Shown: positions 5,919 through 21,268 of the stretch, one piece after another
How the letters are laid out: each line of letters begins with the position of its first letter
Numbering within the stretch: the stretch's first letter is position 1
Assembly: GCA_024742405.1 (NCBI GenBank)
Contig: JANSYP010000008.1
Coordinates: 39,106-103,105, forward strand
Source: Paracoccaceae bacterium
GTDB lineage: Bacteria > Pseudomonadota > Alphaproteobacteria > Rhodobacterales > Rhodobacteraceae
Reading direction: 5' to 3'
Length of the DNA: 64,000 nt
Notes under the pieces: generated by a model
Seen by the model: the letters and a program-made list of their open reading frames with translations, nothing else
Told to the model about the DNA's origin: nothing
The model's database searches: none
Made by a program: the position numbers and the translations under genes

Positions 5919-6660
5919 TCAGATTTCCCCCAGTTTTTCTGCTTGATCGACAAGCAGACCCACGATCGGTCCACGGCACCGACCAAATGCATGTCGGCTG
6001 GCCGCGGAGTCGCTGGGCTGGCTGTTCGCGAGGTTAGCTGGGAGATATCTTGGCGGATGTCAATCTGACAAAAACAATCAGAAATCGCGCCGTCTGCTGT
6101 CGAGAGAGCGAAAACGCGTTTTGGTCCAGTTACTTATATGTGCGTCTGACATGAATGTCGCACGTCCCGCGTCGCGCTGATTGAGCCCGGCTGCAGAGAA
6201 TTGAGGGTTTGCAGCTTCACCGTACCGTCTTAACGGACGGGCCAGTCTGGGGGGCTCCGCATCGCTGAGAACTCGTTTCTGCAGGCGCGAACACCAGCTT
6301 GATCCCTTTACGTCAGTAGCGACCGCATGTGCGTCTGTTTGTTTTGTCCTGCAGTGCGTGAGCGCTGCGACGACGCAGCGAATGTCAGCCGGTCGCAATC
6401 CGACGCTTCGCGCCGCTGCCGGTTCATGCCCCGGGTGCACACAAACCACCGGACTCTGCCACTGTTCCAGAGCGGTGAATAAACGGTACCAAGCCCGCAT
6501 TTTGAAGGCGTCTCGATGAACCTCGTCATCGATAGGTTCGAAGGTGTTTGACGTGGGAACAGGAGGCAAACCTGCAACTCCTGTGCATATCTCGACCAGA
6601 CCACGTCGCGTCAGGAGGCGCATTTACGTGCGCCCGAGGTGCATTGGGAGTGTCGACACA

Positions 6661-6681
6661 GATTTGGTGACCGAGTCACCG
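6661..6681. promoter_or_regulatory. Palindromic operator-like site, copy 1 (GATTTGGTGACCGAGTCACCG)
   Basis: Inverted repeat GGTGAC-N3-GTCACC. Its flanks are almost identical to copy 2 (GATTTGGTGA...AGTCACCG). It lies 54 nt upstream of the ATG at 6735 that heads the cydD remnant. Confidence 0.55.
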
Positions 6682-6734
6682 TCTCTTCCCGCGCATGTGT
6701 GGAAAAAGATCTGCGGTACTTTCGGGGAATCGCC

Positions 6735-7865
6735 ATGCTCGCTCAAGTAGATCGCACAGCCGAAAGCTGGTTGCGGCTGCGCTGTCTCGCCTCTGCGGGC
6801 GCAGGTGGACCAACCGTCGCCCTTTATCCGTCTCTGATGATTTGGATGCCTGAGCCGGCACCGTCCGGAACTCCACGTAACCTTCGGCATCACCCGCGCA
6901 GAGACCCTTCGCACGCGCACCATGGCCGTCCTGCGCATCGCCTTTCTGTCCTCGACGGTGCTGGAGCTTTTTTTCAGCCCTGGGCGTTGCGCTCGTCGCC
7001 GTTTTCGTCGGGTTCACCCTGCTCGGAGAAATCGGTTTCGGATCCTGGGGAACGCCGCTGACGCTCGGCCAGGCCCTGTTTCTGCTCCTGATCGCCCCCG
7101 AGTTATTCCAGCCGCTCCGCGACCTGGCACGACCGTGCCGCTGGCCATGTCGTCACCGCTGTACTGCATGCGCTGGATGCGGCGGACCGCGCGACTTGCC
7201 TCGGCCTTGGCCAGCCGTCCAGACCGCTGCCCGGACCGATTGCGTTGTCGCTCCGCGGCGTGCGCGTGGATATGCGTGGCCAGCTGGTACGCCTGCCCGA
7301 CGTTGCACTGCGCGGAGGCGATGCGCTCGCCCTGACCGGGCCGAGTGGCGCGGGCAAGAGCACCGCGCTCGCTGCCATTGCGGGACTGACCCCGATCGCG
7401 TCAGGCCGGATTGATGTGTGTGGCCTGGCGCTTAGTGCCGAAACCGCCGATGCATGGCGCGCCCGGATCGCCATGGTGCCGCAAGGCCCCCATTTCCCGG
7501 ATGTGCCGCTCGGGGACTGGCTCGATATCGCGAAGTCCGGCCGCGATCCGTGGCCCGCGCTCCGGAAGGCCGGGGCCGACGGCATCGTCACGCGCCTTCC
7601 CGAGGGTCTCGAAACCCGCCTGGGCGAGACCGGGGGCGGGGTGTCCGGCGGAGAGGCGCGCAGGCTGCTGCTGGCGCGCGCCATTCTCACGGGCAGTGAT
7701 CTCATCCTCGCCGACGAGCCGACCGCCGATCTCGACCGGGAGACGGCGGAGCGGATCATTGAAGCGCTCTGCGATCGCAACGTCGAAGGGTGCACGGTGA
7801 TCGTTGCGACCCATGACCCTGACCTCGCCGTCGCGATGGGCCGGCAGGTGGCGCTCACGGCATGA
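6735..7865 (+). pseudogene. cydD: cydD remnant (thiol-exporting ABC transporter CydD): large internal deletion plus at least two frameshifts
   Basis: The frame of ORF 6922 gives TMAVLRIAFLSSTVLELFFS. After the T7 run at 6968-6974 the CydD-like sequence continues one frame over (ALGVALVAVFVGFTLLGEIGFGSWGTPLTLGQALFLLLIAPELFQPLRDLA). It shifts again near 7120-7125 into ORF 7245..7865 (WHDRAAG..., Walker A GPSGAGKST, LSGGE, Walker B). Only about 1.1 kb remains where a CydD of about 570-590 aa needs about 1.75 kb. Confidence 0.8.
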
Positions 7866-8892
7866 GGGCGCTTCTGCAAATCGCCGGGCTGCTCTTGACC
7901 GCAGACCGGTGGGCCATGGCGCGGGGGGCTGCACTATCGGTCACCGTCCTGGCGATGGGGGCGGCACTTCTGGGACTCTCGGGCTGGTTCATCACCGCAA
8001 CCGGAATTGCGGGTCTTGCAGGGCTTGGGATCGCCTTCGATGTCTTCCGGCCATCGGCGGGCGTGCGCTTTCTGACGCTGGGGCGCACGGCTGCGCGCTA
8101 TGGCGAGCGACTGCTGACCCATGACGCGACGCTCCGCGCGCGGTCATCGGGGTTTTCGTGGCACTGGCGCTGGCCGAAACGCTGCTGCCCCTGCGGCGCG
8201 GCTTCTCCGATCTTGGTCGCATGGTGGGGGCCGCAAATCGCATCGCCCCGCGCGTGACACCGGCCCGTCCGGTCCAGGCCGGGTTGGAGCCGCTATCTGC
8301 TCCGTTGCTGGCCCTGGACTGCGCAGAGGGGATACTCACGCTTCAAGCCGGCGAGGCCGTCGTTGTCACTGGGCCCACCGGTGCCGGAAAATCCACCTTG
8401 CTGATGCAGATCGCGGGGCTCGGCGACGATGGCGGTATCTCGATCAAGGGCCATCGGCCAAACGACCGGCCCGAGAATGCGTTGCGCGCACTGGTCGCGG
8501 CGCTGCCGCAGAGAAGCGCGCTCATCGCCGGTACGGTGCGTGACAACCTGTCTCTCGCGGGCGACATGCGTGATCGGGACATGTGGGACGTTCTCGACGC
8601 GACGGCCCTGGCGCCCGACATCAGAGCCCGCGGAGGGCTCGACGGACGGCTGGGCGAAGGCGGTGCTGGTTTGTCGGGCGGGCAGGCGCCGCGCCTGACC
8701 CTGGCCCGTGTCCTGCTGAAGCACCCGCAGATCCTGCTTTTGGACGAGCCGACAGAGGGCCTCGACGCCGGCACCGCAGATGCGGTTCTGCGGAACGTAA
8801 GGGACTTCCTTCCGAACGCGCTGATCGTCGTGGCCATGCATCGGAGCGCGGATCGTCCGATTTTCGACAGGATCGTTCGGCTCTCGCCCTGA
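7862..8892 (+). pseudogene. cydC: cydC remnant: N-terminal ~90 aa joined out of frame to the last TM helix and the ATPase domain
   Basis: ORF 7862..8257 starts MRALLQIAGLL...LSGWFITATGIAGLAG...AGVRFLTLGRTAARYGERLLTHDATLRA (CydC N-terminus) and then becomes nonsense. ORF 8158..8892, in another frame, resumes with (AVIGVF)VALALAETLLPLRRGFSDLGRMVGAANRI followed by an ABC ATPase (GPTGAGKST, LSGGQ, LLLDEPTEGLD). About 600 bp of TMD-coding sequence is missing. The start overlaps the cydD stop (ATGA). Confidence 0.8.
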
Positions 8893-8910
8893 TTTGGTGA
8901 TGAAGTCACC
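8891..8910. promoter_or_regulatory. Palindromic operator-like site, copy 2 (GATTTGGTGATGAAGTCACC)
   Basis: Same motif as copies 1 and 3. It overlaps the cydC-remnant stop codon and lies 114 nt upstream of the cydA start. Confidence 0.55.
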
Positions 8911-9023
8911 GAGGCGTCCCGCCCGAACGATCTACACCACCCCTCGATGCGCAGCGGAGGCCGACTCGGGCTTGTCCGGGACCCGTTCGGTCCGCGCCGC
9001 GCAACGATCGAGGTGGAGCCAGA

Positions 9024-10700
9024 ATGGAGCTAGATGTCGTCGAGCTGTCGCGCCTGCAATTCGCGATGACAGCCATGTACCACTTCCTCTTCGTGCTGCT
9101 GACGCTGGGCCTGTCGGTCATCGTCGCGATCATGGAGACCGTCTATGTCATGACGGGCCGCCCGATCTGGCGGCAGATGACGAAATTCTGGGGCACGCTC
9201 TTCGGGATCAATTTCGTTCTTGGCGTCGCCACCGGCATCACCATGGAATTCCAGTTCGGCATGAACTGGAGCTACTACAGCCACTATGTCGGCGACATCT
9301 TCGGGGCGCCGCTCGCCATAGAAGGGCTGATGGCGTTCTTCCTCGAAGCGACCTTCGTCGGGCTCTTCTTCTTCGGCTGGGACAAGCTGACGAAGGTGCA
9401 GCATCTCACCGTCGCATGGCTCGTAGCACTCGGTTCGAACTTCTCGGCGCTCTGGATCCTGATCGCGAACGGATGGATGCAGAACCCCGTGGGGTCCGAG
9501 TTCAATCTCGATACGATGCGCATGGAAATGACGTCCTTCGCCGAGGTGCTCTTCAACGAGGTGGCCCAGGCGAAATTCGTGCATACTGTGTCGGCGGGCT
9601 ACGTGACCGCTGCGGTCTTCGTCCTCGGTGTCTCGGCCTGGTATCTGCTGATGGGCCGCCACATCGCGCTGGCGAAGCGCTCCATCACCATCGCGGCCTC
9701 CTTCGGACTGGCTGCGGCCCTCTCCGTCGTCGTGCTCGGCGACGAGTCGGGCTACTCCGCCAGCCACACCCAGAAGATGAAACTCGCCGCGATCGAGGCG
9801 ATGTGGGAGACCCACGACGCGCCCGCGCCCTTCACCATTGTCGGGTTTCCCGATCAGGCGGCGCGCGAGACCCACTATGCCGTGGAGATCCCCTGGGCCA
9901 TGGGTCTGATCGGCACGCGGTCCCTGACCGAAGAGATCCCGGGCATCGACGCCCTCGTGGCCGAGGCCGGTGACAGAATCCGTCGCGGTCTGATCGCTTA
10001 CGACGCGCTGATGGTCATCCAGGCAGAGCGCGAGACTGCGCCGGACGACGCCCGGCGGGTCTTCGAACAGACCAAGGACGATCTGGGCTATGCCTATCTG
10101 CTGAAACGCTATGTCGATGACCCGCGCGACGCGAACGATGCGCAGATCGCACAGGCGGCCTGGGACACCGTGCCCACCGTCTGGCCGCTTTTCTGGGCCT
10201 TCCGGATCATGGTGGGGCTCGGCTTCGCGTACATCGGCATGATGCTCTTTTTCTTCTGGCGGTCATCTTTCCGGGAACAGACCTATCCGCGCTGGGCGCT
10301 CTGGGGCGCAGTCTTTGCCATCCCGGCCCCCTGGATCGCGGCGGAACTGGGCTGGTTCGTCTCCGAATTCGGCCGTCGGCCCTGGACCGTGGATGGCGTC
10401 CTGCCGACGGCACTCTCGGCCAGCCACCTCAGCGTTCAGGACCTGCTGATCACGCTGGCGGGCTTCATGATCTTCTACACCATCCTCTTCATCGTCGAGA
10501 TGGGGCTGATGCTGAAATACATCCGCAAGGGCCCGTTCCAGGATGTCGAGGAAACCGACGCCTGGGAGGCGCGGCACGCGCATCGTCTGCGAACCCATGA
10601 CGGCCAGGGGCCCTTCGCTCCGGCCGGTGCGCGCGCGGCCTCGGCCGTTGGCGGCGCGCTCCCCGGCTCCAGCGCAACCCCGGTGGAGTACCTGACATGA
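9024..10700 (+). CDS. cydA: Cytochrome bd ubiquinol oxidase subunit I
   Basis: ORF track, 558 aa. N-terminus MELDVVELSRLQFAMTAMYHFLFV is the canonical CydA start. Multi-TM protein with a Q-loop-sized hydrophilic insert. Confidence 0.97.
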   Translation: MELDVVELSRLQFAMTAMYHFLFVLLTLGLSVIVAIMETVYVMTGRPIWRQMTKFWGTLFGINFVLGVATGITMEFQFGMNWSYYSHYVGDIFGAPLAIEGLMAFFLEATFVGLFFFGWDKLTKVQHLTVAWLVALGSNFSALWILIANGWMQNPVGSEFNLDTMRMEMTSFAEVLFNEVAQAKFVHTVSAGYVTAAVFVLGVSAWYLLMGRHIALAKRSITIAASFGLAAALSVVVLGDESGYSASHTQKMKLAAIEAMWETHDAPAPFTIVGFPDQAARETHYAVEIPWAMGLIGTRSLTEEIPGIDALVAEAGDRIRRGLIAYDALMVIQAERETAPDDARRVFEQTKDDLGYAYLLKRYVDDPRDANDAQIAQAAWDTVPTVWPLFWAFRIMVGLGFAYIGMMLFFFWRSSFREQTYPRWALWGAVFAIPAPWIAAELGWFVSEFGRRPWTVDGVLPTALSASHLSVQDLLITLAGFMIFYTILFIVEMGLMLKYIRKGPFQDVEETDAWEARHAHRLRTHDGQGPFAPAGARAASAVGGALPGSSATPVEYLT

Positions 10701-11860
10701 TCCTCCACGATCTCATCGAATTTGAAACCTTGCGCGTGATCTGGTCGGCGCTGCTCGGGCTCCTGCTGATCGGCTTCGGGCTGACCGACGGCTTCGATAT
10801 GGACGTGGGCGCGCTCCTGCCCTTCGTCGCCCGGACAGAACTGGAACGGCGCGTGGTGATCAACACGGTCGGGCCGGTCTGGGAGGGCAACCAGGTCTGG
10901 TTCATCCTGGGCGGCGGCGCGATCTTTGCTGCCTGGCCGCCGCTCTACGCGGTCAGCTTTTCGGGTTTCTACCTGGCGATGTTCGTCATTCTCGCCGCGT
11001 TCATCGTCCGGCCCGTGGCCTTCAAGTACCGCTCAAAGCGGGACAGCGCCAGCTGGCGGAGCGGCTGGGACTGGGCGCTGTGCGCCAGCGGGGCGATCCC
11101 CGCGCTCTTCTTCGGGGTCGCGGTGGGCAATGTCCTGTTTGGCGTGCCCTTTCACCTCAACGACATGCTGATGCCGCGCTATGATGGCTCCGTCCTGACC
11201 AAGTTCGCGGGGCTCTTGCGCCCCTTCGCACTGCTTGCCGGCGTCGTGTCCCTGGCGATGCTGCTGACGCACGGCGCGGCATGGCTCAGCCTGAAGGCCG
11301 AAGGTCCCGTCGCCCGCCGCGCGCGGCGGATCGGCAGCGGGGCCGGGCTGGTCGCCATGGCAGGCTACGCCCTGGCCGGATTCTGGCTCGCCACCGGCAT
11401 CCCCGGCTTCGCGCTGGTGGGGGAGGTTGTCACCGACGGCCCGTCCAACCCGCTCTATTCGCAGGTGTCGCAGGGCGGCTCCTGGCTCTCCGCCTACGCG
11501 GCGCGCCCCTGGATCGCGGTTGCGCCCCTCATGGGCTTCGTCGGCATGGCGCTGGCCATTCGCGGGCTGCGGGCCGGGCGCGAGCATTCGACGCTGCTCT
11601 GGTCGAAGCTCGGGATCACCGGTGTGATCTCGTCGGTGGGGCTTACGATGTTCCCCTTCATCCTGCCCTCGACCGTCGACCCGAACGCCTCGCCGACGGT
11701 GTGGGACGCCTCCTCCTCGCACCAGACGCTTTTCATCATGCTGGTCTGCACGGCGATCTTACTGCCGCTGATCCTCGCCTACACCGCGTGGGTCTACCGG
11801 GTGCTCTGGGGCAAGGTCACCGCAGCCAACGTCACCGCCAATGCCGACAGCCTCTACTGA
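10697..11860 (+). CDS. cydB: Cytochrome bd ubiquinol oxidase subunit II
   Basis: ORF track, 387 aa. ATGA overlap with cydA. Polytopic membrane protein with a CydB-like sequence (VWEGNQVWFILGGGAIFAAWP). Confidence 0.97.
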   Translation: MILHDLIEFETLRVIWSALLGLLLIGFGLTDGFDMDVGALLPFVARTELERRVVINTVGPVWEGNQVWFILGGGAIFAAWPPLYAVSFSGFYLAMFVILAAFIVRPVAFKYRSKRDSASWRSGWDWALCASGAIPALFFGVAVGNVLFGVPFHLNDMLMPRYDGSVLTKFAGLLRPFALLAGVVSLAMLLTHGAAWLSLKAEGPVARRARRIGSGAGLVAMAGYALAGFWLATGIPGFALVGEVVTDGPSNPLYSQVSQGGSWLSAYAARPWIAVAPLMGFVGMALAIRGLRAGREHSTLLWSKLGITGVISSVGLTMFPFILPSTVDPNASPTVWDASSSHQTLFIMLVCTAILLPLILAYTAWVYRVLWGKVTAANVTANADSLY

Positions 11861-11875
11861 GAAAGGAGGATCGCA

Positions 11876-12031
11876 ATGTGGTACTTCGCCTGGCTGCTCG
11901 GACTGCCCCTGGCCGCGGTCTTTGCCGTGATGAACGCCGTGTGGCTGGAGCTTCAGCGCGACCGCAGGCTGGCCGACGAGGATGGGCCGCACGCGGTGCA
12001 GCTGCCGCCAAAGCGGGTGGCCGCCGAGTAG
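11876..12031 (+). CDS. cydX: Cytochrome bd oxidase small subunit CydX (51 aa)
   Basis: Below the ORF-track size cut-off. AGGAGGA RBS 6 nt upstream. Translation MWYFAWLLGLPLAAVFAVMNAVWLELQRDRRLADEDGPHAVQLPPKRVAAE carries the MWYFxW single-TM signature of CydX. Starts 15 nt after cydB. Confidence 0.8.
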   Translation: MWYFAWLLGLPLAAVFAVMNAVWLELQRDRRLADEDGPHAVQLPPKRVAAE

Positions 12032-12078
12032 CCGAAAACCCGCCGCTGCAACGAAAACCAAAGAAGGGAGCAAGACCA

Positions 12079-13380
12079 ATGGAAAGACGTCAGTTCCTGT
12101 CCCTAGCACTGGGAGGAGGGGCGGCGACGCTCGCCGCCGCGGGGCGCCCGGCAGAGGCCGCCCCGGTTCGGACATCGGCGCGCATCGTCATCATCGGCGC
12201 CGGAGCCGCCGGAACGGCGCTCGCCAACCGATTGACCCGCCGCCTCGACGGGGCCCAGATCACGATCATCGACCCTCGGCAGCAGCATCTTTACCAGCCG
12301 GGGCTGTCGCTCGTCGCCGCCGGGCTGAAACCTTCGAGCTACGTCGTCTCGGACACGGCCCAGTGGCTGCCCTCCGGCGTGACCTGGCTGCCGGAACGGG
12401 TCGCGGCCGTGGATGCCGAGGCCAAGACGGTCGCGACCGAAGGCGGTCAGATGCTGCCTTACGACTGGCTGGTCGTCGCATCCGGCCTCTTGCTGGATCA
12501 TGATGCAATCGAGGGTTTCAGCCTCGACATGGTCGGCGAGAACGGGCTCGGCGCGCTCTATGCCGGACCGGAGCATGCCGCCCGGACATGGGCCGCGGCC
12601 TCGAAATTCATCGAAGAAGGCGGTACCGCGCTCTTCACCCGGCCCGCGACCGAGATGAAATGCGCCGGCGCGCCGCTCAAGCACGCCTTTCTGATCGACG
12701 ACATCGCGCGCCGCGCCGGCAGCGCAAGCAAGACCAACATGGTCTATCTCGCGCCGCAGGGTGTGCTCTTCAGCGTGCCGATCGTCGCCGAAAAGGTCCG
12801 GATGCTCATTGGGGAGCGCGGCATCGACACGCAGTTCAACCAGACGCTGAAATCCATCGATGCCGGCGCCCGGCGCGCGACCTTCACGTCCGAGACCGGC
12901 GGCGAGACCGAGATGGACTATGACTATCTCCAGGTCATCCCACCGCAGCGCGCGCCCGATTTCGTGCGCCAGTCCGGCCTCAGCTGGGCGGACCGGTGGG
13001 TGGATCAGGGCTGGATAGAGGTCGACCCCGCAACCCTGCGACACCGCCGCTACCCGGAGATCTTCGCCGTGGGCGACATCGCCGGCGTGCCCAAGGGCAA
13101 GACCGCCGCCAGCGTGAAATGGCAGGTGCCGGTGGTCGAGGATCATCTGGTCGGCGCCATCGAGGGCCGCGAGGGGTCCCAGACCTACAACGGCTACACC
13201 TCCTGTCCGCTCATCACCCGGGTCGGGCGCGCGATGCTGGTGGAGTTCGACTACCAGAACAACCTCACGCCCTCCTTTCCCGGGATCATCGCGCCGCTGG
13301 AAGAGCTCTGGATCAGCTGGCTGATGAAGGAGGTGGCGCTGAAAGCCACCTACAACGCAATGCTCCGTGGCCGGGCGTAG
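12079..13380 (+). CDS. sqr: Sulfide:quinone oxidoreductase (type II-like) with twin-arginine signal peptide
   Basis: In-frame ATG at 12079 inside track ORF 11281..13380, with a GGGAG RBS. MERRQFLSLALGGGAATLAAAGRPAEA is a Tat-type leader. GAGAAG FAD fold; motifs HLYQPG, KCAGAPLK and YNGYTSCPL match the two redox cysteines of type II SQR. Confidence 0.88.
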   Translation: MERRQFLSLALGGGAATLAAAGRPAEAAPVRTSARIVIIGAGAAGTALANRLTRRLDGAQITIIDPRQQHLYQPGLSLVAAGLKPSSYVVSDTAQWLPSGVTWLPERVAAVDAEAKTVATEGGQMLPYDWLVVASGLLLDHDAIEGFSLDMVGENGLGALYAGPEHAARTWAAASKFIEEGGTALFTRPATEMKCAGAPLKHAFLIDDIARRAGSASKTNMVYLAPQGVLFSVPIVAEKVRMLIGERGIDTQFNQTLKSIDAGARRATFTSETGGETEMDYDYLQVIPPQRAPDFVRQSGLSWADRWVDQGWIEVDPATLRHRRYPEIFAVGDIAGVPKGKTAASVKWQVPVVEDHLVGAIEGREGSQTYNGYTSCPLITRVGRAMLVEFDYQNNLTPSFPGIIAPLEELWISWLMKEVALKATYNAMLRGRA

Positions 13381-13390
13381 GGAGGGACCG

Positions 13391-13759
13391 ATGAAAGACC
13401 TGACATTCTCTACGCTGGTCGCGGTGTTCGAAGAGGTTTTCGGACGCGGGCTCTTCTGGATGATGGTCGCGGCTGCGGCACTCATCACGCTTGGATATCT
13501 CTACGTCCTGCTGCGCGACCGTGCGGTGAGCTGGAAGAAATTCCTGCTCGCCCAGCTGTCGATGCCGGTCGGGGCGGTTCTCGCGGTCTGGTTCGTCATG
13601 GTGATGACCGAGTCCCACCTGTCCGACCTCGGCGGTCCGGTCGACATCATCGTTTTTCTGGCCGTCGCCGCGGTGGGCGCCGTGGGCATGGCGATCCTCG
13701 TCTACACGCTTGAGTCGCTCCTGGGCTCGACGCGCACCAAGCGTGCGCCGGAGGGATGA
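13391..13759 (+). CDS. Small membrane protein (about 3 TM), unknown function
   Basis: ATG at 13391 after GGAGGGA, 10 nt downstream of sqr. Hydrophobic segments LFWMMVAAAALITLGYLYVLL, VGAVLAVWFVMVM, IIVFLAVAAVGAVGMAILVY. Confidence 0.5.
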   Translation: MKDLTFSTLVAVFEEVFGRGLFWMMVAAAALITLGYLYVLLRDRAVSWKKFLLAQLSMPVGAVLAVWFVMVMTESHLSDLGGPVDIIVFLAVAAVGAVGMAILVYTLESLLGSTRTKRAPEG

Positions 13760-13787
13760 GCATGGTCCGACAGGCAAGGAGCCGGTC

Positions 13788-14762
13788 ATGAGCAGCCTTG
13801 AGCACGCAGCGGCGCCCGAGGCCGCACCCGCCCGGCTGGAGCACTTTCCGATCACCTTCTTCGGGGTCACGATGGGGCTTTTCGGGCTGGCCCTGGCGCT
13901 CCGCGCCGGAGGGGTCGCGGCGACGTCGCTGCTCGTGACGGCGGGTACCGCGTTGCTGCTGATCGCGCTGGCGGGCCTCTATGCCCTCAAGATCCTGCGG
14001 CATCCCGATCAGGTCGCTGCGGAATGGCAGCACCCTGTCCGGCTCTCCTTCTTTCCGGCCGCGAACATCTCGGTCCTGCTCCTGTCGCTTCTGCTGCAGG
14101 ACAGCCTGCCGGGCGTCTCGGCCGTGCTCTGGGGGCTGGGTGCCGTCATTCAGGCGATCCTGACGATCGTCATCGTATCGGCCTGGATTTCCCATCGCGC
14201 CTTTGTGCCCGGGATGCTGTCGCCGGCCTGGTTCATCCCCGCGGTCGCCAATGTGATCGTGCCCCTCGGCGGGGCGCATCTGGCGCTCTTCGAGATCAGC
14301 TGGTACTTCTTTTCGGTCGGGCTCCTGTTCTGGGCGATCCTCCTGACGCTGGTCTTCAATCGCCTGATCTTTCACGATCCGCTGCCGGGCAAACTGCGCC
14401 CGACCATGGTGATCCTGATCGCCCCGCCCTCGGTCGCGTTCCTGGCCTGGACCGAGCTGAATGGCGGCAGCCTCGATGCGGCTGGCCTGTTTCTCTTCAA
14501 TACCGGGCTTTTCTTCGCGGCGCTTGTCGCGGTGCAGGTGCCCGCGCTGCTGCGTCTGCCCTTCGCGATGTCCTTCTGGGCGCTGTCCTTCCCGCTGGCC
14601 GCACTGACGACAGCGGTCTTCCGCTACGGCGCGCTCAGCGGAAATCACCTCTCCCAATTGGCGGGTTTCGGCCTTCTCGGCCTGCTCGCCGTCACCATCG
14701 CCGCGCTGTCGGTCCGCACCATCCGTGCGGCGATGGCTGGCGAAATCTGCAAACCGGAATAA
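13788..14762 (+). CDS. TehA/SLAC1 (TDT) family anion channel/transporter
   Basis: ATG at 13788 after AAGGAG. LEHFPITFFGVTMGLFGLALALR resembles the TehA N-terminal motif. About 10 TM helices. Confidence 0.75.
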   Translation: MSSLEHAAAPEAAPARLEHFPITFFGVTMGLFGLALALRAGGVAATSLLVTAGTALLLIALAGLYALKILRHPDQVAAEWQHPVRLSFFPAANISVLLLSLLLQDSLPGVSAVLWGLGAVIQAILTIVIVSAWISHRAFVPGMLSPAWFIPAVANVIVPLGGAHLALFEISWYFFSVGLLFWAILLTLVFNRLIFHDPLPGKLRPTMVILIAPPSVAFLAWTELNGGSLDAAGLFLFNTGLFFAALVAVQVPALLRLPFAMSFWALSFPLAALTTAVFRYGALSGNHLSQLAGFGLLGLLAVTIAALSVRTIRAAMAGEICKPE

Positions 14763-14786
14763 ACCCCAAACCACAGGAGATCCTTC

Positions 14787-15221
14787 ATGAAAAAACTCAT
14801 CCTTTCCGCCCTTCTGGCGGCCACGACCGCGGCGTCAGCCTTTGCCGAGGACGCGTCCAAACTCGTGACCGTCGTGACATCGGCCGAGCCGCAGACCCAG
14901 CTGATGGCCATGGTGCTGACCATGCAGGCCGCGCAGCAGGGCGCCGCCGCGCACATCCTGCTCTGCGGACCGGCCGGCGACATCGCGCTCCGGGACGCGC
15001 CTGCCACGGCAACCACGGGCCAGCCGCCCCGCGATATGAGCCCCCAGGGACTGATGCAGATGATCCGCGAGAAAACCGGCGCGACCGTCGAGGTGTGCGC
15101 GATCTACCTGCCCGGGCGCGGTGACGATGCTTCGGTCCTCCTGGACGGGATCAGTGTCGCCAAGCCGGACGAAATGGCCGGACGGCTGATCGCGCCGAAC
15201 ACCCGCGTTCTGTCCTTCTGA
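14787..15221 (+). CDS. DsrE/DsrF-like sulfur-relay family protein with Sec signal peptide
   Basis: ORF track, 144 aa. MKKLILSALLAATTAASAFA-ED is a leader peptide. The mature part, KLVTVVTSAEPQTQLMAMVLTMQAAQQGA..ILLCGPAGD...VEVCAIYL, is DsrE-fold-like. Confidence 0.6.
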   Translation: MKKLILSALLAATTAASAFAEDASKLVTVVTSAEPQTQLMAMVLTMQAAQQGAAAHILLCGPAGDIALRDAPATATTGQPPRDMSPQGLMQMIREKTGATVEVCAIYLPGRGDDASVLLDGISVAKPDEMAGRLIAPNTRVLSF

Positions 15222-15238
15222 GGCGCCACGCGCCTCGA

Positions 15239-15282
15239 TCACCTGCCGCTCTGCGAAACGCGCGCGTCAGGGCGGCAGGTGA
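15239..15282 (+). repeat. Inverted repeat TCACCTGCCGC-N22-GCGGCAGGTGA between the dsrE-like and rhodanese genes
   Basis: 11-bp perfect arms read directly. No T-tract follows, so it is not a classical terminator. Confidence 0.5.
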
Positions 15283-15341
15283 CATCGGCGGGCGCCAGAC
15301 GGCCCGCGCGCGCCCGTTCCACCCCGACTTGGAGAACTCTC

Positions 15342-15929
15342 ATGCGCATTCTCACCCGCATCGCAGCAATCTTGGCGCTGGCTCTGGCAGCCGCTGCCGC
15401 TATCGCCGCGCCGGAACCGGATGACCCCGGAAAACGGACCTCCTGGGGCCTCTATCTGACCTCGAAAGAAGCCTACGACTTGAAGCAGGCGCAAGGTGAC
15501 GACGCGCTCTTTGTCGATGTCCGTGAACCGGTCGAGATCATGTTCACCGGCTTCACTGACGTCGTGGACATCAACGTCCCCTTCATGCTGGTCGACCCGT
15601 CGGCTTGGCACCCGGATAAACCTGTCCTGAAGATGGAGAAGAACCCGGACTTCGCCGCCGGCATCCTTTCAGCGCTCGACGCACGTGGCCTCGACCGTAC
15701 CGCGCCGGTGATCCTGATGTGCCGCTCGGGCGGCACGCGCGGCGCGCCCTCCGCCAACGCGCTCGAGGGGCACGGGCTGGAGCAGGTCTATGTCGTGGTC
15801 GACGGGTTCGAAGGATCGGCGCGCAAGGACACGCCCGACGCCCCGTGGCGCCTCGTCAACGGCTGGAAAAATGCGGGCCTGCCCTGGAGCTATGATCTGA
15901 ACCCCGCGAAAATCCATCTGAGGGACTAG
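15342..15929 (+). CDS. Rhodanese-domain sulfurtransferase with signal peptide
   Basis: In-frame ATG at 15342 after GGAGAA. MRILTRIAAILALALAAAAAIA-AP is a leader peptide. The active-site loop CRSGGTRG is typical of rhodanese. Confidence 0.8.
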   Translation: MRILTRIAAILALALAAAAAIAAPEPDDPGKRTSWGLYLTSKEAYDLKQAQGDDALFVDVREPVEIMFTGFTDVVDINVPFMLVDPSAWHPDKPVLKMEKNPDFAAGILSALDARGLDRTAPVILMCRSGGTRGAPSANALEGHGLEQVYVVVDGFEGSARKDTPDAPWRLVNGWKNAGLPWSYDLNPAKIHLRD

Positions 15930-15946
15930 GCAGCGCGCGGCGGCGG

Positions 15947-16864
15947 TCACATCGCCGGGGCACTCGCGGCCAGGTCCGACCGCGCCGCCGTCAGGCAGGC
16001 TCCGATCTCTGCGAAGAGCTGCGCATGGGGCGAGCTCTGCCGCCATGCCAGGGCGATCTGGCGCGGGCGCGCGCCTTCGAGCGCGCCGAGATGCAGCGCA
16101 TGACCCCTTGAGATGCCCGCATCGATGGCGAGCTTCGGCAGCAGCGTGATGCCGATCTCCTCCTCGACCATCGCCACGAGGGTCGAGAGGCTCGTCGCGG
16201 CAAAGCTCGGATCTTCGTCCAATGTGATGTCCGGAAAACTCGACAGCGCATGGCGCTGCAGACAGTGGCCTCGCTCCAGAAGCAGCAGCTTCCTGTCGAC
16301 CAGATCCTCCGACCGGATCGTGCTGCGGTTGCCTAGCGGATGGTCCGTCGGCGTCGCGAGCCAATAACCGTCGCTGAACAGGATCTCCGTTTCGATCTGC
16401 GCCGGCAGCGGGTGCGGCAGCGCCATCAGGATCAGGTCGAGCCGGCCCTCCATCAGCCCCTCGACCAGCGGATCGGTCAGTTCCTCGCGCAGATAGAGCT
16501 TTGTATCAGGCAGCGCCGCGCGCAAACGCGGCATCGCCCGCGGCATCAAAAACGGCCCCACCGTCGGGATCGTGCCGAGGCGCAGGGCGGTTGCCTGCGC
16601 GGCGTTTTCGCGCTGGGCCCGCTCCTCGAGATCCTGAACCCCGGCCAGGATCCCGCGCGCCCGCTCGGCAAGATCGCGGCCGACGGGCGTCATCAGCACG
16701 CGGTGCTTGGTCCGCTCGGCCACCTGAACGCCCAGCCGACTCTCCAGCTCCTTCAATCCGGTCGAAAGTGTGGATTGTGTGACGTGGCACAACTCCGACG
16801 CGCGCGAGAAGCTTAGGGTCTTGTCCAACGCGACAAGGAATCGGAGCTGGCGGAGGCTGGTCAT
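15947..16864 (-). CDS. oxyR: LysR-family regulator, OxyR-like, lacking the second redox cysteine
   Basis: ORF track, 305 aa. HTH FSRASELCHVTQSTLSTGLKELE. LLLLERGHCLQRHALSSFPDITLDEDPSFAATSLSTL aligns with E. coli OxyR LLMLEDGHCLRDQAMGFCFEAGADEDTHFRATSLETL. Divergent from a peroxiredoxin gene. Confidence 0.8.
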   Translation of the reverse strand: MTSLRQLRFLVALDKTLSFSRASELCHVTQSTLSTGLKELESRLGVQVAERTKHRVLMTPVGRDLAERARGILAGVQDLEERAQRENAAQATALRLGTIPTVGPFLMPRAMPRLRAALPDTKLYLREELTDPLVEGLMEGRLDLILMALPHPLPAQIETEILFSDGYWLATPTDHPLGNRSTIRSEDLVDRKLLLLERGHCLQRHALSSFPDITLDEDPSFAATSLSTLVAMVEEEIGITLLPKLAIDAGISRGHALHLGALEGARPRQIALAWRQSSPHAQLFAEIGACLTAARSDLAASAPAM

Positions 16865-16965
16865 TGCTTATCGATTTAGTGAATAGCCAGAAGCTTCACA
16901 ATCAATTTCCAAGATTGCCGAGCGCGCCATATCTGACCAGCATCGCAAAATAGAGGAGCAAGGAC

Positions 16966-17628
16966 ATGACTGCGCACGCCACTGCCGCCGCGGAAACGGC
17001 CACCGGACTGCCGCGGCTGAACGAACCCGCACCCTACTTTGACGCGCTGACGACCCACGGCCGCAAGACCCTGACCGATTACAAGGACAAGTGGCTGATC
17101 CTGTTTTCCCACCCCGCCGATTTCACGCCGGTCTGCACCACCGAATTCACGGCCTTTGCCGCCCATGCGGCGGAGTTCGCGGCGCTCGATACTGAACTCC
17201 TGGGTCTCTCCATCGACAGCCACTATGCCCACATCGCCTGGGTCCGCGCGATCCGGGACAGTTTCGGCGTCGAGATCCCCTTCCCGATCATCGCTGACCT
17301 GGACATGAAGGTCGCGCAGACCTTCGGCATGATCCAGCCTGGGGCCTCGGATACCCAGGCGGTCCGGGCCACCTTCGTCATCGACCCCGAGGGCATCCTG
17401 CGCGCGATGGTCTACTACCCGATGTCCAACGGGCGGTCGGTCGGTGAGATCCTGCGCCTTGTGACGGCACTGCAGACCTCCGACAGCGAGGGCGTCGCGA
17501 CACCGGAAAACTGGCAGCCGGGACAGGACGTCATCGTGCCGCCGCCCCAGACCGCCGAGGCCGCGGATGCGCGGATGTGGGAAGGCTTTGAGACGAAGGA
17601 CTGGTACTTTTCCACCAGAACGCTTTGA
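16966..17628 (+). CDS. 1-Cys peroxiredoxin (Prx6 subfamily)
   Basis: ORF track, 220 aa. FSHPADFTPVCTTE peroxidatic motif; no resolving Cys motif seen. Confidence 0.9.
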   Translation: MTAHATAAAETATGLPRLNEPAPYFDALTTHGRKTLTDYKDKWLILFSHPADFTPVCTTEFTAFAAHAAEFAALDTELLGLSIDSHYAHIAWVRAIRDSFGVEIPFPIIADLDMKVAQTFGMIQPGASDTQAVRATFVIDPEGILRAMVYYPMSNGRSVGEILRLVTALQTSDSEGVATPENWQPGQDVIVPPPQTAEAADARMWEGFETKDWYFSTRTL

Positions 17629-17714
17629 TCAGTCAGGTGAACCGACCGTTGGTGCGTCTGGGAACCGGACGCGCCGCACAGCGCCGGATATCGGAAACCG
17701 GGGAAAGCAAGCGC

Positions 17715-18389
17715 ATGGAAAACGCATGGATCGATCGCTTCAAGGGGCTGAGCCGCCTGCCCGACGACATCCGCGCCGAGCTTGAACAGGGCAGCCAGAT
17801 CGTCTCCGTCCCGGCCGGCACGCAGATCTTCGCGCCCGGTCAGACCGCGGACAATCTGTTGCTGCTGCTGGACGGCACAGTGCGGGTCCAGCAGAAGTCC
17901 GAGACCGGGCGCGAAGTCTTTCTCTACCGTGTCCATGCCGGCGAAAGCTGCGTTCTGACCACCGCCTGCATGCTGGCCTTCGAGGACTACTCCGCCGACG
18001 GGATTGCCGAAACCGACGTCTCCGCCGCTGCGATCCCGCGGCGGACCTTCGACAGTCTGGTGGCCAAATCCCCGGTCTTTCGCGAGTTCGTCTTCACCGC
18101 CTATTCGCGGCGGATCACGGACCTCTTCACCCTGATCGACGATATCGTTTTTCAGCGCATGGATGTCCGGCTGGCCGCGCGCCTGCTGGAGCTGGTCGAC
18201 GAAAACGGCGTCGTGCGCGCGACCCATGCCGTGCTTGGGACCGAGCTCGGAACGGCGCGCGAGGTGATCTCGCGCACCCTGTCCGAATTCCATCGCCGCG
18301 GCTGGGTCGAACAGTCCCGCGGTGAAGTTCACATTACGGGTCGTGCGGGGCTCGAACGGCTGGTCAGATCGTCGGGGGCACAGGCCTGA
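17715..18389 (+). CDS. Crp/Fnr-family transcriptional regulator (no FNR-type N-terminal Cys cluster)
   Basis: In-frame ATG at 17715 within track ORF 17625..18389. Has a cNMP-binding-like beta-roll and a C-terminal HTH, LGTELGTAREVISRTLSEFHRRGWV, with the E-x-x-S-R signature. Only two cysteines, as CX5C (ESCVLTTACML). Confidence 0.85.
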   Translation: MENAWIDRFKGLSRLPDDIRAELEQGSQIVSVPAGTQIFAPGQTADNLLLLLDGTVRVQQKSETGREVFLYRVHAGESCVLTTACMLAFEDYSADGIAETDVSAAAIPRRTFDSLVAKSPVFREFVFTAYSRRITDLFTLIDDIVFQRMDVRLAARLLELVDENGVVRATHAVLGTELGTAREVISRTLSEFHRRGWVEQSRGEVHITGRAGLERLVRSSGAQA

Positions 18390-18407
18390 CCGCGCTGAGG
18401 CCCGGAT

Positions 18408-18432
18408 GCTTTGGTGACCAAGTCACCAAAGC
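18408..18432. promoter_or_regulatory. Palindromic operator-like site, copy 3 (GCTTTGGTGAC-CAA-GTCACCAAAGC)
   Basis: Perfect 11-bp arms. Lies 19 nt after the Crp/Fnr gene stop and 250 nt upstream of the pdo-like gene. Confidence 0.6.
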
Positions 18433-18682
18433 ACCGCGCGGGGAAATGCAACGGTACGCCAACCGATTCTCGATGGAGTGACGCATGACCCCCTTTCCGG
18501 GCAGACCCGGCCGCGGACCGCGGCGCGTTCGTGCTGCCGGTCTCGACCCGGCGCCCTGTACCGGCGACCCCGACGCGGCCTAATGCCGGAGGCTGGTTCG
18601 GTTCCTGTCCGGACGCCACTTCTTTGTGTGCTATGGCCCGCGGGGCCAAAGGCATGGCCTGACTACGGAGGAGACACTCGAA

Positions 18683-19567
18683 ATGACCACCTATCCCGTC
18701 ACCATGGACGTAAAACCCGACGTCCAGGCCTTCTTCGACGAGGCGACGAACACCATCAGCTACATCGTCAAGGACCCGGCATCGACCGCCTGTGCGATCA
18801 TCGACAGCGTCATGGACATCGACTACGCCGCCGGCCGCATCGCCTATGACCATGCCGACGAACTGATCCGCCAGATCGAGACCCAAGGCCTCAAGCTGGA
18901 ATGGATCATCGAGACCCATGTCCATGCCGACCACCTCTCCGCCGCCCCCTACATCCAGCAGAAGCTGGGCGGCAAGATCGGCATCGGATCGAAGATCCTG
19001 GTGGTGCAGGACACGTTCGGAAAGGTCTTCAACGAGGGCACGGAGTTCCAGCGCGACGGCTCCCAGTTCGACGCACTTTTCGACGATGGCGACACCTACA
19101 TGGTCGGCCAGATGCAGGCCGTTGCCATGTACACGCCGGGCCACACGCCGGCCTGCATGGTCCATGTCATGGGTGATGCGGCCTTTGTGGGTGACACGCT
19201 CTTCATGCCCGATGGCGGCTCCGCGCGGGCGGATTTCCCCGGCGGCGACGCAGGTACGCTCTATGACAGCATCCAGAAGGTCCTGGCGCTGCCCGATGAG
19301 ACCCGTCTCTTCATGTGCCACGATTACGGGCCGAACGGGCGCGACATCGCCTGGGAAACCACCGTGGGCGAGGAGAGGGCACACAATATCCATGTCGGCG
19401 GCGGCAAGACGAAAGAGGAGTTCGTCAAGTTCCGCACCGAACGGGACGCCCAGCTCGATATGCCCAAACTCATCCTTCCATCGCTGCAGGTGAACATGCG
19501 CGCAGGCGAGGTGCCGCGGGACAAGGATGGCAACCCGATGCTCAAGGTACCGGTCAACGCGCTCTGA
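18683..19567 (+). CDS. MBL-fold persulfide dioxygenase-like protein (ETHE1/Blh-related)
   Basis: In-frame ATG at 18683 after GGAGGAGA. ETHVHADHLSAA metal motif, YTPGHTPACM. Sits directly upstream of an SQR gene. Confidence 0.85.
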   Translation: MTTYPVTMDVKPDVQAFFDEATNTISYIVKDPASTACAIIDSVMDIDYAAGRIAYDHADELIRQIETQGLKLEWIIETHVHADHLSAAPYIQQKLGGKIGIGSKILVVQDTFGKVFNEGTEFQRDGSQFDALFDDGDTYMVGQMQAVAMYTPGHTPACMVHVMGDAAFVGDTLFMPDGGSARADFPGGDAGTLYDSIQKVLALPDETRLFMCHDYGPNGRDIAWETTVGEERAHNIHVGGGKTKEEFVKFRTERDAQLDMPKLILPSLQVNMRAGEVPRDKDGNPMLKVPVNAL

Positions 19568-19588: not shown

Positions 19589-21268
19589 ATGGAACTGAAG
19601 AAGATATCGCCAAGGATCACGGTCAGCCCGCAGATCACCATCGAAGATGTCGAAGCGATCGCCGCAGAAGGCTATCGCGCGATCATCTGCAACCGCCCGG
19701 ACGGCGAGGGCGCGGATCAGCCCTCCTTTGAAGAGATCGAGGCCGCAGCAAACGCTGCGGGAATCACCGCGCGCTATGTCCCGGTCGAGCGCGGCCTTGT
19801 GAGGGACGAGGATGTCGCCGCCTTCGGCGCGGCCCTCGACGAGGTGCAGCGCCCGGTGCTCGCCTACTGCCGGACGGGCACCCGCTCGGCCACGCTCTGG
19901 TCCTTTCACGAATCCCGGAGCCGCCCCATGGCCGAAATCCTCGCCGCGACCAAGGCGGCAGGCTACGACATGAACGGTGTGGCGCGCCGCATCGCCAATG
20001 GCGGCAAGACACCGACAGACACTGGGGACGCGCATTTCGAGGTGGTGATCGTCGGCGCCGGCGCCGGGGGTATTTCCCTTGCCGCCAGCCTCAAGTCGCG
20101 CAAGCGCGGGCTCAATATCGCCGTGATCGACCCCGCGGACATCCACTATTACCAGCCCGGCTGGACCATGGTCGGCGGCGGCGTGTTCGACGCCCAGACA
20201 ACGGCCAAGACCATGGGCAGCCTGATCCCCAAGGGCGTGCACTGGATCAAATCCGCCGTGGCGGCGTTTGAGCCCGAGAAGAACGCCGTCATCCTCGATG
20301 GCTGCCGGGTCGTCAAATATGACCGTCTGGTGGTCTGCCCGGGACTGAAGCTCGACTGGGGCAAGGTCGACGGGCTCGAGGAGACGCTGGGTCGCAATGG
20401 CGTCACCTCCAACTACCGCTACGATCTGGCCCCCTACACCTGGGAACTGGTCCAGCAGATGATCGAGGGGCGTGCGATCTTTACCCAGCCGCCCATGCCC
20501 ATCAAATGCGCCGGCGCCCCGCAAAAGGCGATGTATCTCTCGGGGGACGCCTGGTTCCGCAGAGGCGTGCTGAAGGATATCGACATCCAGTTCATGAATG
20601 CCGGCGGGGTGCTCTTCGGCGTGAAGGATTTCGTGCCCGCGCTCGAAGCCTATGTCGAGAAATACGACGCGACGCTCAATTTCTTCCACAACCTGGTCTC
20701 GGTCGACGGCCCGACCAAGACGGCCGTTTTCGAGGCCAACAAACCCGACGCCGAACCGACGCAAGTCTCGGTCGAGTTCGACATGATGCATGTCTGCCCG
20801 CCCCAGACCGCGCCGGATTTCATCCGCGTGTCGCCCCTGGCCGATGCCGCGGGCTGGGTCGATGTCGATCAGGCGACGCTCCGTCACAAGAGCTATGACA
20901 ATATCTGGAGCCTGGGCGATGTCATGAACGCGCCGAACGCCAAGACCGCCGCCGCCGCGCGCAAGCAGGCGCCGACCGTGGCCGACAACATCGTCGCCGA
21001 TATCGCGGGACGCTCCGCGGTGGCGCAGTATGACGGCTATGGCTCCTGCCCGCTGACGGTCGAACGGGGCAAGATCGTGCTGGCGGAGTTCGGCTATGGC
21101 GGCGTGCTCCAGCCGAGCTTCCCGTCCTTCCTGATCGACGGCACGAAACCCACCCGCGCGGCCTGGTTTCTCAAGGAAACCCTGCTTCCGCCGATTTACT
21201 GGAAGGCGATGCTCCGCGGTAAGGAATGGCTGGCAAAGCCCGAACGGCTCAAGGTCGCGGCCGGGTAG
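19589..21268 (+). CDS. sqr: Fusion of a DUF442/TIGR01244 (phosphatase-like sulfur-transfer) domain and a type II-like SQR
   Basis: ORF track, 559 aa. The N-terminal ~140 aa carry the CX5R loop AYCRTGTRS. Then come GAGAGG, HYYQPGW, IKCAGAPQK and YDGYGSCPL. No signal peptide. Confidence 0.88.
   Translation: MELKKISPRITVSPQITIEDVEAIAAEGYRAIICNRPDGEGADQPSFEEIEAAANAAGITARYVPVERGLVRDEDVAAFGAALDEVQRPVLAYCRTGTRSATLWSFHESRSRPMAEILAATKAAGYDMNGVARRIANGGKTPTDTGDAHFEVVIVGAGAGGISLAASLKSRKRGLNIAVIDPADIHYYQPGWTMVGGGVFDAQTTAKTMGSLIPKGVHWIKSAVAAFEPEKNAVILDGCRVVKYDRLVVCPGLKLDWGKVDGLEETLGRNGVTSNYRYDLAPYTWELVQQMIEGRAIFTQPPMPIKCAGAPQKAMYLSGDAWFRRGVLKDIDIQFMNAGGVLFGVKDFVPALEAYVEKYDATLNFFHNLVSVDGPTKTAVFEANKPDAEPTQVSVEFDMMHVCPPQTAPDFIRVSPLADAAGWVDVDQATLRHKSYDNIWSLGDVMNAPNAKTAAAARKQAPTVADNIVADIAGRSAVAQYDGYGSCPLTVERGKIVLAEFGYGGVLQPSFPSFLIDGTKPTRAAWFLKETLLPPIYWKAMLRGKEWLAKPERLKVAAG

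Follow-up and report, generated by a model that had tools for sequence, protein, structure and literature searches.

A candidate sulfide-oxidation and respiration cluster linking cydABX to a sulfide:quinone oxidoreductase gene in a Paracoccaceae bacterium

Introduction

We propose that the stretch of DNA studied here (the window, 64,000 nt of contig JANSYP010000008.1 from a marine Paracoccaceae bacterium) carries a co-regulated sulfide-oxidation and respiration cluster, in which two formerly separate transcription units have been fused in this lineage, and we hold this reading with moderate confidence. In the cluster, the genes of a cytochrome bd quinol oxidase (cydABX) run into those of a sulfide:quinone oxidoreductase (SQR, gene sqr), a membrane protein of family DUF5368, a TehA/SLAC1-type channel and a protein of the DsrE fold, with a second sulfide module lying further downstream. 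The region looks like a real sulfide-burning unit because the linkage recurs in many relatives and comes with shared control sites. An earlier note on this DNA had described the same genes, together with a rhodanese gene behind them, as a possible self-contained and dedicated chain leading from sulfide through quinol to oxygen. Coordinates are those of the whole 64,000-nt window, whose G+C content is ~65% in this part, and the genes from cydA to that of the rhodanese all lie on one strand (+).

Results

The linkage of cyd and sqr was surveyed from the side of each enzyme. For SQR, 80 loci of the Rhodobacterales and Hyphomicrobiales were compared (denoted by L numbers), with orthologues of 70-93% identity and one genome per species, of which 65 extend 3 kb or more upstream of sqr and were informative. 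In 31 of these 65, all from different species, cydB lies upstream on the same strand, usually within a whole cydDCABX set; the association is far beyond chance. Two arrangements predominate: that of the window, cydABX-sqr-duf5368-tehA-dsrE, and cydABX-tehA-dsrE-sqr-duf5368. TehA is encoded in 21/34 cyd-linked loci compared with 7/34 unlinked loci, and a DsrE-fold gene is present in 20/34 compared with 4/34; on the SQR tree, linked and unlinked loci are interleaved. The gene for DUF5368 stands directly after sqr in 78 of the 80 loci, which makes DUF5368 a constant partner of this SQR.

A second line of evidence is a shared control site, a 19-bp palindrome (the box) with the consensus TTGGTGAC-N3-GTCACCAA that is found ~120 nt upstream of cydA. 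The window holds four matches to it, against 0.09 expected by chance, and shuffles of the 80 loci gave none. Among the relatives, the box precedes cydA in ten loci (L001, L002, L005, L008, L009, L011, L017, L018, L081, and L163). When 170 nt upstream of cydA were aligned for the 14 sequences of this type (variant A, the window and 13 loci), the palindrome was the only conserved block, with its centre 92-153 nt before cydA, and in 13 of the 14 a TA lies at +29/+30 from that centre. Such a spacing between the box and the putative -10 element suggests the geometry of a class-II Crp/Fnr-dependent promoter, with a predicted start to match.

The same box occurs elsewhere in the relatives, 103-134 nt before sqr in four cyd-unlinked loci (L003, L028, L032, and L038) and before the persulfide dioxygenase (PDO, gene pdo) operon in seven loci (L003, L006, L011, L018, L081, L163, and L164, the last being from Dinoroseobacter shibae), in the first six of which it comes after a Crp-family gene. 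Where variant-A sequences are directly linked (12 measured), 9-90 nt separate cydX from sqr (9 nt in L005) and hold no box, nor is there one in the cydX-sqr spacer of the window. The locus L027 is an exception that supports the pattern: in its cydX-sqr spacer of 173 nt, a T-run terminator comes first and a separate box and promoter after it. In some loci, a pair of YeeE/YedE genes lies between cydX and sqr, such as in Roseibium sp. FZY0029 (L017, 7137-8357), where these sulfur-transport-type membrane proteins have their own box copy before the pair; a cydX-sqr gap of similar size, also with its own box, is seen in Amorphus coralli (L009, ~8650-10000). GC-rich hairpins without a T-run are present in the cydX-sqr spacers of L002, L008, L011, L022, and L081, with none in the window, and could tune the oxidase:SQR mRNA ratio in these relatives.

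The remaining loci (variant B) carry the canonical FNR box TTGAT-N4-ATCAA. For cydA it was seen in 18 loci, at a distance of ~85 nt, and for sqr, cyd-linked or not, in 35, at 63-90 nt upstream. No FNR box was found within 10 kb of the window's cluster, in a scan considered uninformative for a high-GC alphaproteobacterium. Judging by these sites, cydA and sqr share a type of regulator in every variant, because either the box (variant A) or the FNR box (variant B) is found before both genes. In the lineage of the window, two formerly separate units appear to have been fused under one promoter.

The candidate binder of the box is a Crp/Fnr-family regulator encoded between the two sulfide modules (Table 1). 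The box is present in 10 of the 17 loci that have the Crp-family gene versus 6 of the 63 that do not. The regulator does not have the N-terminal cysteine cluster of FNR proper, only an internal CX5C pair (SCVLTTAC) whose cysteines are conserved in 18/18 and 17/18 sequences, and no close relative of it has been solved or characterised, the best PDB match scoring 79 bits. Its orthologue in D. shibae DFL12 is 87% identical. The cluster of that organism (L164, CP000830.1 2672892-2693569) has no cyd genes and reads SQR-DUF5368-SLAC1-LysR-Prx-Crp-YeeE-PDO-SulP, with two Crp-family genes, three boxes and no FNR box. The D. shibae pair was named DnrB and DnrC and showed no apparent role in aerobic-anaerobic regulation, and no function was drawn for it from genomic context (Ebert et al. 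2017, PMC5398030). An OxyR-like LysR protein encoded nearby was also considered as the regulator of the box and was rejected, as five box-bearing loci (L003, L006, L007, L008, and L009) have a Crp-family gene and no LysR gene.

Within the window, the sequence fits a single operon, cydABX-sqr-duf5368-tehA-dsrE: the genes share a strand, the gaps are short, no terminator or promoter lies inside the unit, and the operator stands before cydA only. The gaps after cydX are 47 (sqr), 10 (DUF5368), 28 (TehA/SLAC1), 24 (DsrE-fold), and 120 nt (rhodanese), and a Shine-Dalgarno-like sequence precedes each gene from cydA to that of the rhodanese. A terminator scan found no terminator-like site in any intergenic gap of the unit, and the cydX-sqr spacer folds no better than its shuffles (z +1.15). 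A sigma-70 promoter scan gave 0 sites and is uninformative for a high-GC alphaproteobacterium, an Rfam scan of 5800-23300 returned no known RNA family, and no tRNA genes were found within the window. Independent gene calls on sister contigs yielded the same open reading frames (ORFs), and dN/dS values of 0.05-0.36 for every gene from cydA to sulP indicate purifying selection.

Most of what the earlier note had read from the sequence is borne out by this analysis, including the gene set, its order, gaps and same-strand packing, the ATGA overlap by which cydB begins (10697) inside the end of cydA (10700), the lack of a hairpin at the cydX-sqr junction, and the gene identities, the oxidase being of the bd-I type and the SQR a type II enzyme with a Tat signal. 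The start of the unit has to be moved, since the 8891 given in the note is the stop of the upstream cydC remnant and cydA starts at 9024. The view that nothing decouples sqr from cydABX stands for the spacer of the window, which has neither a promoter-like nor a terminator-like site, but many relatives have an FNR-box promoter before sqr, such that co-regulation is general and co-transcription is not.

The sequence points to a bd-I type quinol oxidase, CydABX. The alignment of CydA with E. coli CydA (6RKO) covers the full length (residues 3-505), scores 669 bits and shows conservation at the haem-ligand positions H19, H186, M393, and E99 of E. coli; the long Q-loop is present, and CydB and CydX are both encoded directly downstream. 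An exact look-up of the window's CydA sequence found no entry for it. The SQR has the features of a type II (SQOR-like) flavoprotein, with predicted quinone-reducing activity. It scores 237 bits against full-length human SQOR versus 49-56 against type I SQRs and 56-79 against FccB. Both catalytic cysteine motifs (KCAGAP and GYTSCPL) align with human SQOR, residues C195 and C376 (the equivalents of human C201 and C379) are invariant in 21 orthologues, and the FAD-binding Rossmann motif of type II SQRs is present. The signal reads MERRQFLSLALGGGAATLAAAGRPAEA with AP after the cleavage point and combines a twin arginine with hydrophobic residues behind it and a cleavage site of the AxA type; because of this N-terminal twin-arginine motif, export of the SQR through the Tat system and a periplasmic location are predicted. 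An RR-x-F/L motif occurs in the SQR orthologues examined, and Pfam TAT_signal is recorded for some homologues. We considered whether a Tat signal on such an enzyme was new and rejected this, as type II SQRs with an N-terminal Tat motif have already been reported for Epsilonproteobacteria (Han and Perner 2015, PMC4584964).

Among the helper proteins, the TehA/SLAC1 protein has a full-length SLAC1 domain and PDB matches to SLAH3, TehA, and SLAC1. The next protein carries two invariant cysteines (C60 and C104), and the label "DsrE-like" that it had been given is supported by the predicted fold and not by Pfam. It has no match to Pfam DsrE (PF02635) at E <0.001, and 3 of 13 orthologues match that family weakly (best E 0.0064). 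Its AlphaFold2 (AF2) model has a pLDDT of 74, and the top nine Foldseek matches of the model in the PDB are YchN/DsrE/DsrF-family or related proteins (E 1.7e-7 to 6e-4), with target-normalised TM values of 0.56-0.76.

The rhodanese was tried as a conserved member of the unit and was rejected: its gene is absent from all 34 cyd-linked loci surveyed and is lineage-specific, occurring only in L161-L163, which are close relatives, and, with 39% identity, in L050. The 120-nt gap before it had been given correctly, but this spacer additionally holds a strong inverted repeat (Table 1) and folds better than its shuffles (z -2.7). The repeat could act as an operator, or else in partial termination or in transcript processing.

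Upstream of cydA lie the remnants of cydD and cydC. What is left of cydD covers only residues ~301-625 of the intact CydD of L001, spread across three frames, and cydC is missing residues ~96-280 compared with both L001 and L163. The cydD truncation is common to the window and its sister contig L163 (SQR 95% identical) and is older than the split between the two, whereas only the window has the 563-nt deletion in cydC, the cydC of L163 having two in-frame stops. An assembly artefact was considered for these lesions and rejected, since the cydD truncation is shared with the independent assembly L163, which has cydC stops of its own. There is no other, intact copy of cydDC within the 64-kb window. 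The cydABX genes themselves are intact and, with dN/dS of 0.13-0.36 against both L163 and L001, still under purifying selection.

In both the window and L163, the truncated cydD is adjoined by a large repeat-protein gene, in the window a minus-strand ORF (810-5918, 1702 aa) with RCC1-like, RTX calcium-binding, FG-GAP, and Ig-like repeats. Because of these repeats, a large secreted protein, adhesin or toxin-like, is the probable product. Between this giant gene and the cydD remnant, in apparently non-coding DNA, the box occurs for a third time (Table 1), with no obvious intact target gene.

The second sulfide module, downstream, has the adjacent PDO and DUF442-fused SQR of the heterotroph sqr-pdo operons (18683-21268), which the cyd-linked SQR does not, and the pdo-DUF442sqr-sulP module probably completes the sulfide pathway. 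The PDO is probably of type II; 9G8T, 4EFZ, and 4YSK we take to be type II PDOs. A leader of 254 nt separates the perfect box of this operon from the pdo ATG. Between the two modules lies a LysR/peroxiredoxin pair, which is found in the same place in L002, L005, L011, L017, L018, L022, L081, and D. shibae and could help in defence against sulfane sulfur or peroxide. Past the downstream end of the sulfide cluster, the G+C content falls from about 0.65 to 0.57-0.62 over ~25 kb (22000-47000), a stretch that may be a region of different origin.

Table 1. Features of the cluster and its surroundings, in window coordinates
Feature	Coordinates	Strand	Basis or remarks
Third box copy TTGGTGACCGAGTCACCGT, upstream of cydD remnant	6664..6682	.	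Two mismatches to consensus
cydD pseudogene, 5'-truncated, with frameshifts	6892..7865	+	Comparison with intact L001 genes
cydC pseudogene, ~563-nt internal deletion and frameshift	7862..8892	+	Comparison with L001 and L163
Box TTGGTGATGAAGTCACCGA, candidate cydA operator	8894..8912	.	Two mismatches; centre 8903, 121 nt before cydA ATG
Putative -10 element TACACC	8933..8938	+	Its TA lies 30 nt downstream of box centre
cydA, cytochrome bd-I subunit I	9024..10700	+	Pfam Cyt_bd_oxida_I, E 7e-171
cydB, subunit II	10697..11860	+	ATGA overlap with cydA; Cyt_bd_oxida_II, E 5e-96; TIGR00203, 394 bits (cutoff 117)
cydX, small subunit	11876..12031	+	YbgT_YccB; TIGR02106, 58 bits (cutoff 31.6)
cydX-sqr spacer, 47 nt	12032..12078	+	Ribosome-binding site GAAGGGAG; no hairpin, no box
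Type II SQR, predicted twin-arginine signal (MERRQFL...AEA, then AP)	12079..13380	+	Similarity to human SQOR
DUF5368 membrane protein	13391..13759	+	Pfam E 7e-49; three hydrophobic/predicted transmembrane segments
TehA/SLAC1 (TDT-family) anion channel or transporter	13788..14762	+	PF03595, 176 bits
Secreted DsrE/YchN-fold protein, 144 aa	14787..15221	+	Predicted fold; N-terminal signal-like segment
Inverted repeat, 15-nt arms	15239..15282	+	93% complementary, 14-nt loop, no U-tract
Rhodanese, N-terminal signal-like hydrophobic segment	15342..15929	+	PF00581, 25.5 bits (cutoff 22.2); loop CRSGGTR
OxyR-like LysR regulator, divergent from the peroxiredoxin gene	15947..16864	-	214 bits to OxyR model, below its cutoff
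1-Cys peroxiredoxin	16966..17628	+	Profile match
Crp/Fnr-family regulator, D. shibae DnrB/DnrC type	17715..18389	+	PF00027 and PF13545; candidate box binder
Perfect box TTGGTGACCAAGTCACCAA, before pdo operon	18411..18429	.	Between Crp-family gene and pdo
Persulfide dioxygenase (PDO)	18683..19567	+	336-356 bits to MBL-fold entries 9G8T, 4EFZ, 4YSK
DUF442 (rhodanese-like)-SQR fusion, C. pinatubonensis SQR type	19589..21268	+	Architecture as in PMC9163753
SulP/STAS anion transporter	21363..23099	+	Sequence match

Discussion

How might such a cluster work? In the mechanism that we propose, a single promoter ~80 nt upstream of cydA, with the palindrome centred ~42 nt before the predicted start, would give one mRNA for cydA, cydB, cydX, sqr, duf5368, the tehA-like gene and the dsrE-like gene, with possible read-on into the rhodanese gene. 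The Tat system would deliver the SQR, already folded and with FAD bound, to the periplasmic membrane face, where the SQR would sit with the three-helix DUF5368 protein, converting HS- to enzyme-bound sulfane sulfur and reducing ubiquinone. The bd oxidase would then re-oxidise the quinol at a periplasmic site and reduce O2, a step that would conserve energy and sustain sulfide oxidation while sulfide blocks the haem-copper oxidases. The sulfane sulfur would pass to the secreted two-cysteine DsrE-fold protein and, in this genome, to the rhodanese as well. More speculatively, the TehA-type channel would move a sulfur anion (sulfite, thiosulfate or HS-) and so link the unit to the cytoplasmic PDO/DUF442-SQR/SulP module. 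Both modules would belong to one regulon of the cluster-encoded Crp-family regulator, whose binding we infer, because the same palindrome stands before the pdo-DUF442sqr-sulP operon; its signal, at a guess, would be sulfide or persulfide. Korshunov and colleagues, in 2016, reportedly found the respiration of E. coli through bd-I to be insensitive to sulfide. In the account that PMC5702731 cites from Forte et al. 2016, sulfide insensitivity of the bd oxidase is established in E. coli.

A further suggestion, which we make only tentatively and would not ourselves bet on, is that the Crp-family protein represents a new class of sulfide/persulfide sensor that works through its CX5C pair and acts as a class-II activator at TTGGTGAC-N3-GTCACCAA. 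It would then switch on a whole sulfide-respiration regulon, made up of the sulfide-tolerant bd oxidase, the SQR-DUF5368 complex in the periplasm and the PDO/SQR/SulP module in the cytoplasm. If true, the respiratory chain of these bacteria would be rewired in response to sulfide, not oxygen.

Several observations weigh against the proposed cluster or narrow its scope. In the reverse survey, which covered 80 metagenome loci found with CydB, an SQR gene lies downstream in only 3 of the 14 informative loci with CydB of at least 68% identity (one more of the 14 has a DsrE-fold gene only, and one locus at 64% CydB identity has TehA only), and SQR is absent from all metagenome loci at 55-65% CydB identity. 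Because of the counts from the SQR and the CydB side together, the linkage is real and recurrent but limited to some of the cyd operons of marine Alphaproteobacteria. Both here and in L163, cydD and cydC are pseudogenes, CydDC is required for assembly of the bd oxidase in E. coli, and a functional bd oxidase in this bacterium needs another copy beyond the 64 kb of the window. Nor is the chain exclusive, because quinol from the SQR is available to every quinol oxidase and to the bc1 complex, and low sulfide affinity has been reported for type II SQRs (PMC4584964). Co-transcription is not a general feature, since sqr has its own FNR box in variant-B loci. As for the regulator, seven loci that have it show no box at <=2 mismatches, and what pairs it with the box and with its signal is co-occurrence. 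Finally, the co-transcription and physiology proposed for the unit are read from DNA.

These points also change the terms in which the unit can be described. The chain from sulfide through quinol to O2 cannot be kept "dedicated", as the earlier note had it, when the quinone pool is a shared one, and "self-contained" is too strong given the adjacent cydDC pseudogenes and the second sulfide module downstream, which probably completes the pathway. The neighbourhood count that had been suggested there has now been made from both sides (31/65 SQR loci, 3/14 close CydB loci), and it cuts both ways for the idea of a functional unit, which gains from recurrence across genera, permuted gene orders and shared operator motifs and loses from the small fraction of close cydABX operons that have sqr.

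The alternative that survives best, although we consider it unlikely, is that cyd and sqr are neighbours only through a common low-oxygen (FNR-type) regulon. On that account, cydAB and sqr would be switched on together because oxic-anoxic interfaces bring sulfide and low oxygen together, the bd oxidase would serve general micro-oxic respiration, and the SQR would feed the common pool with no special partnership. The FNR boxes before cydA in 18 loci and before sqr in 35, linked loci included, would be expected from such a regulon, as would the predominance of close cydABX operons without sqr and the fact that about half of the SQR loci have no cyd. However, the group of the window has no FNR box and carries instead another palindrome, which it has in common with the pdo-sqr-sulP operon and which is tied to a regulator located inside sulfide-oxidation clusters. 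Moreover, the D. shibae orthologues of this regulator are apparently outside aerobic-anaerobic regulation (PMC5398030), and the adjacency recurs in permuted gene orders.

Less probable again, and in our view a poor prospect, is that an internal promoter in cydX or in the 3' end of cydB drives sqr and the genes downstream, with the tight spacing being mere compaction. The GC-rich cydX-sqr hairpins of the five relatives listed above agree with such an arrangement, as do the separate promoters of L027 and of the variant-B loci, but the 47-nt spacer of the window has no hairpin, box or promoter-like site, the gap in L005 is just 9 nt, and in directly linked loci cydA alone is preceded by the box that unlinked sqr genes carry. 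That the bd branch is decaying in this genome, with cydDC lost, cydABX becoming a pseudogene because the oxidase could not be assembled without cydDC, and the SQR part alone in use, is very improbable: the truncated and frameshifted cydD, the 563-nt deletion in cydC and the independent lesions in L163 would fit, but cydA, cydB, and cydX are intact under the selection described above although cydD was truncated before the window and L163 diverged, the promoter box of cydA is intact, and a second cydDC copy may lie elsewhere in the genome.

We therefore return to a co-regulated sulfide-oxidation and respiration cluster as the reading that we favour. Cytochrome bd was known to withstand sulfide and SQR to supply the quinone pool. 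Direct evidence for a purposeful pairing of bd oxidase and SQR in bacteria has been lacking so far, and a recurrent fusion with shared control sites in many marine Alphaproteobacteria is such evidence. The pairing is open to study in the cultivable Roseovarius litoreus DSM 28249, Jhaorihella thermophila DSM 23413, and Amorphus coralli DSM 19760, with D. shibae as a ready model organism for the regulator. Our findings also provide first functional leads for DUF5368 (as an SQR partner), for the secreted two-cysteine DsrE-fold protein and for a Crp-family regulator that earlier work had not placed. In turn, this may help to explain the removal of sulfide by abundant heterotrophs at oxic-anoxic interfaces.

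Comparison with known systems

The separate parts of the cluster are all known already, namely bd oxidases, type II SQRs with a Tat motif, and sqr-pdo operons. A route from SQR through quinone to the bd oxidase has been drawn for Acidithiobacillus ferrooxidans (PMC2754497), in which sqr (AFE_1792) and cydAB (AFE_0954-0955) are at separate loci, and for a Mycobacterium metagenome-assembled genome (PMC12917267), and a survey of proteobacterial bd gene clusters makes no mention of sulfide or sqr (PMC5322542). In the literature searched, we found no description of a cydABX-sqr operon with helper genes, in agreement with the impression in the earlier note that the arrangement had not been described as a unit. 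Neither did that literature describe the constant SQR-DUF5368 pair, or mention DUF5368, or describe a shared operator of non-FNR type that goes with an uncharacterised regulator of the Crp family.

The cydABX operon of E. coli encodes the same enzyme family and the same set of subunits as that of the window, and the role proposed here builds on the sulfide tolerance of bd oxidases; unlike the window's operon, which is fused to sqr and sulfur-handling genes behind a non-FNR box, the E. coli operon has no sulfide-oxidising partner. In sulfide-adapted invertebrates, mitochondrial SQOR, a type II SQR, passes electrons to ubiquinone and on to a sulfide-insensitive alternative oxidase (AOX) when cytochrome c oxidase is poisoned. 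The logic is the same as that proposed for the window, but AOX is not a cytochrome bd, its step conserves no energy, and the two enzymes are not known to be genetically linked.

With regard to regulation, CstR of S. aureus and BigR are persulfide-sensing repressors. SqrR of Rhodobacter capsulatus is presented as another in the accounts given in PMC9995734 and PMC9143464. Their regulons likewise combine a local regulator with a shared operator over sqr, sulfurtransferase, PDO, and exporter genes. The SqrR/CstR/BigR regulators are of the ArsR or CsoR family, whereas the candidate in the window is of the Crp/Fnr family, with class-II activator geometry and a CX5C pair, and its proposed regulon would include a terminal oxidase, unlike those of the persulfide repressors.

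The closest counterpart of the downstream module is the sqr-pdo system of Cupriavidus pinatubonensis JMP134 (PMC5702731, PMC9163753), with the same pairing of PDO and DUF442-SQR and a common chemistry from sulfide to sulfane sulfur to sulfite or thiosulfate. Compared with these systems, the cyd-linked SQR of the window is a second enzyme, with a Tat signal, no DUF442, a DUF5368 partner and no adjacent PDO, and the sqr-pdo operons described contain no terminal oxidase gene. The Tat-motif type II SQRs of Epsilonproteobacteria share their type and twin-arginine motif with the SQR of the window, but no link to cydABX or DUF5368 is reported for them, and the clade of the window is alphaproteobacterial (PMC4584964). 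Lastly, the FnrL/Dnr network of D. shibae (PMC5398030) includes the 87%-identical orthologue of the candidate regulator, for which the context seen in the window (SQR and PDO), together with the box, suggests a sulfide regulon.

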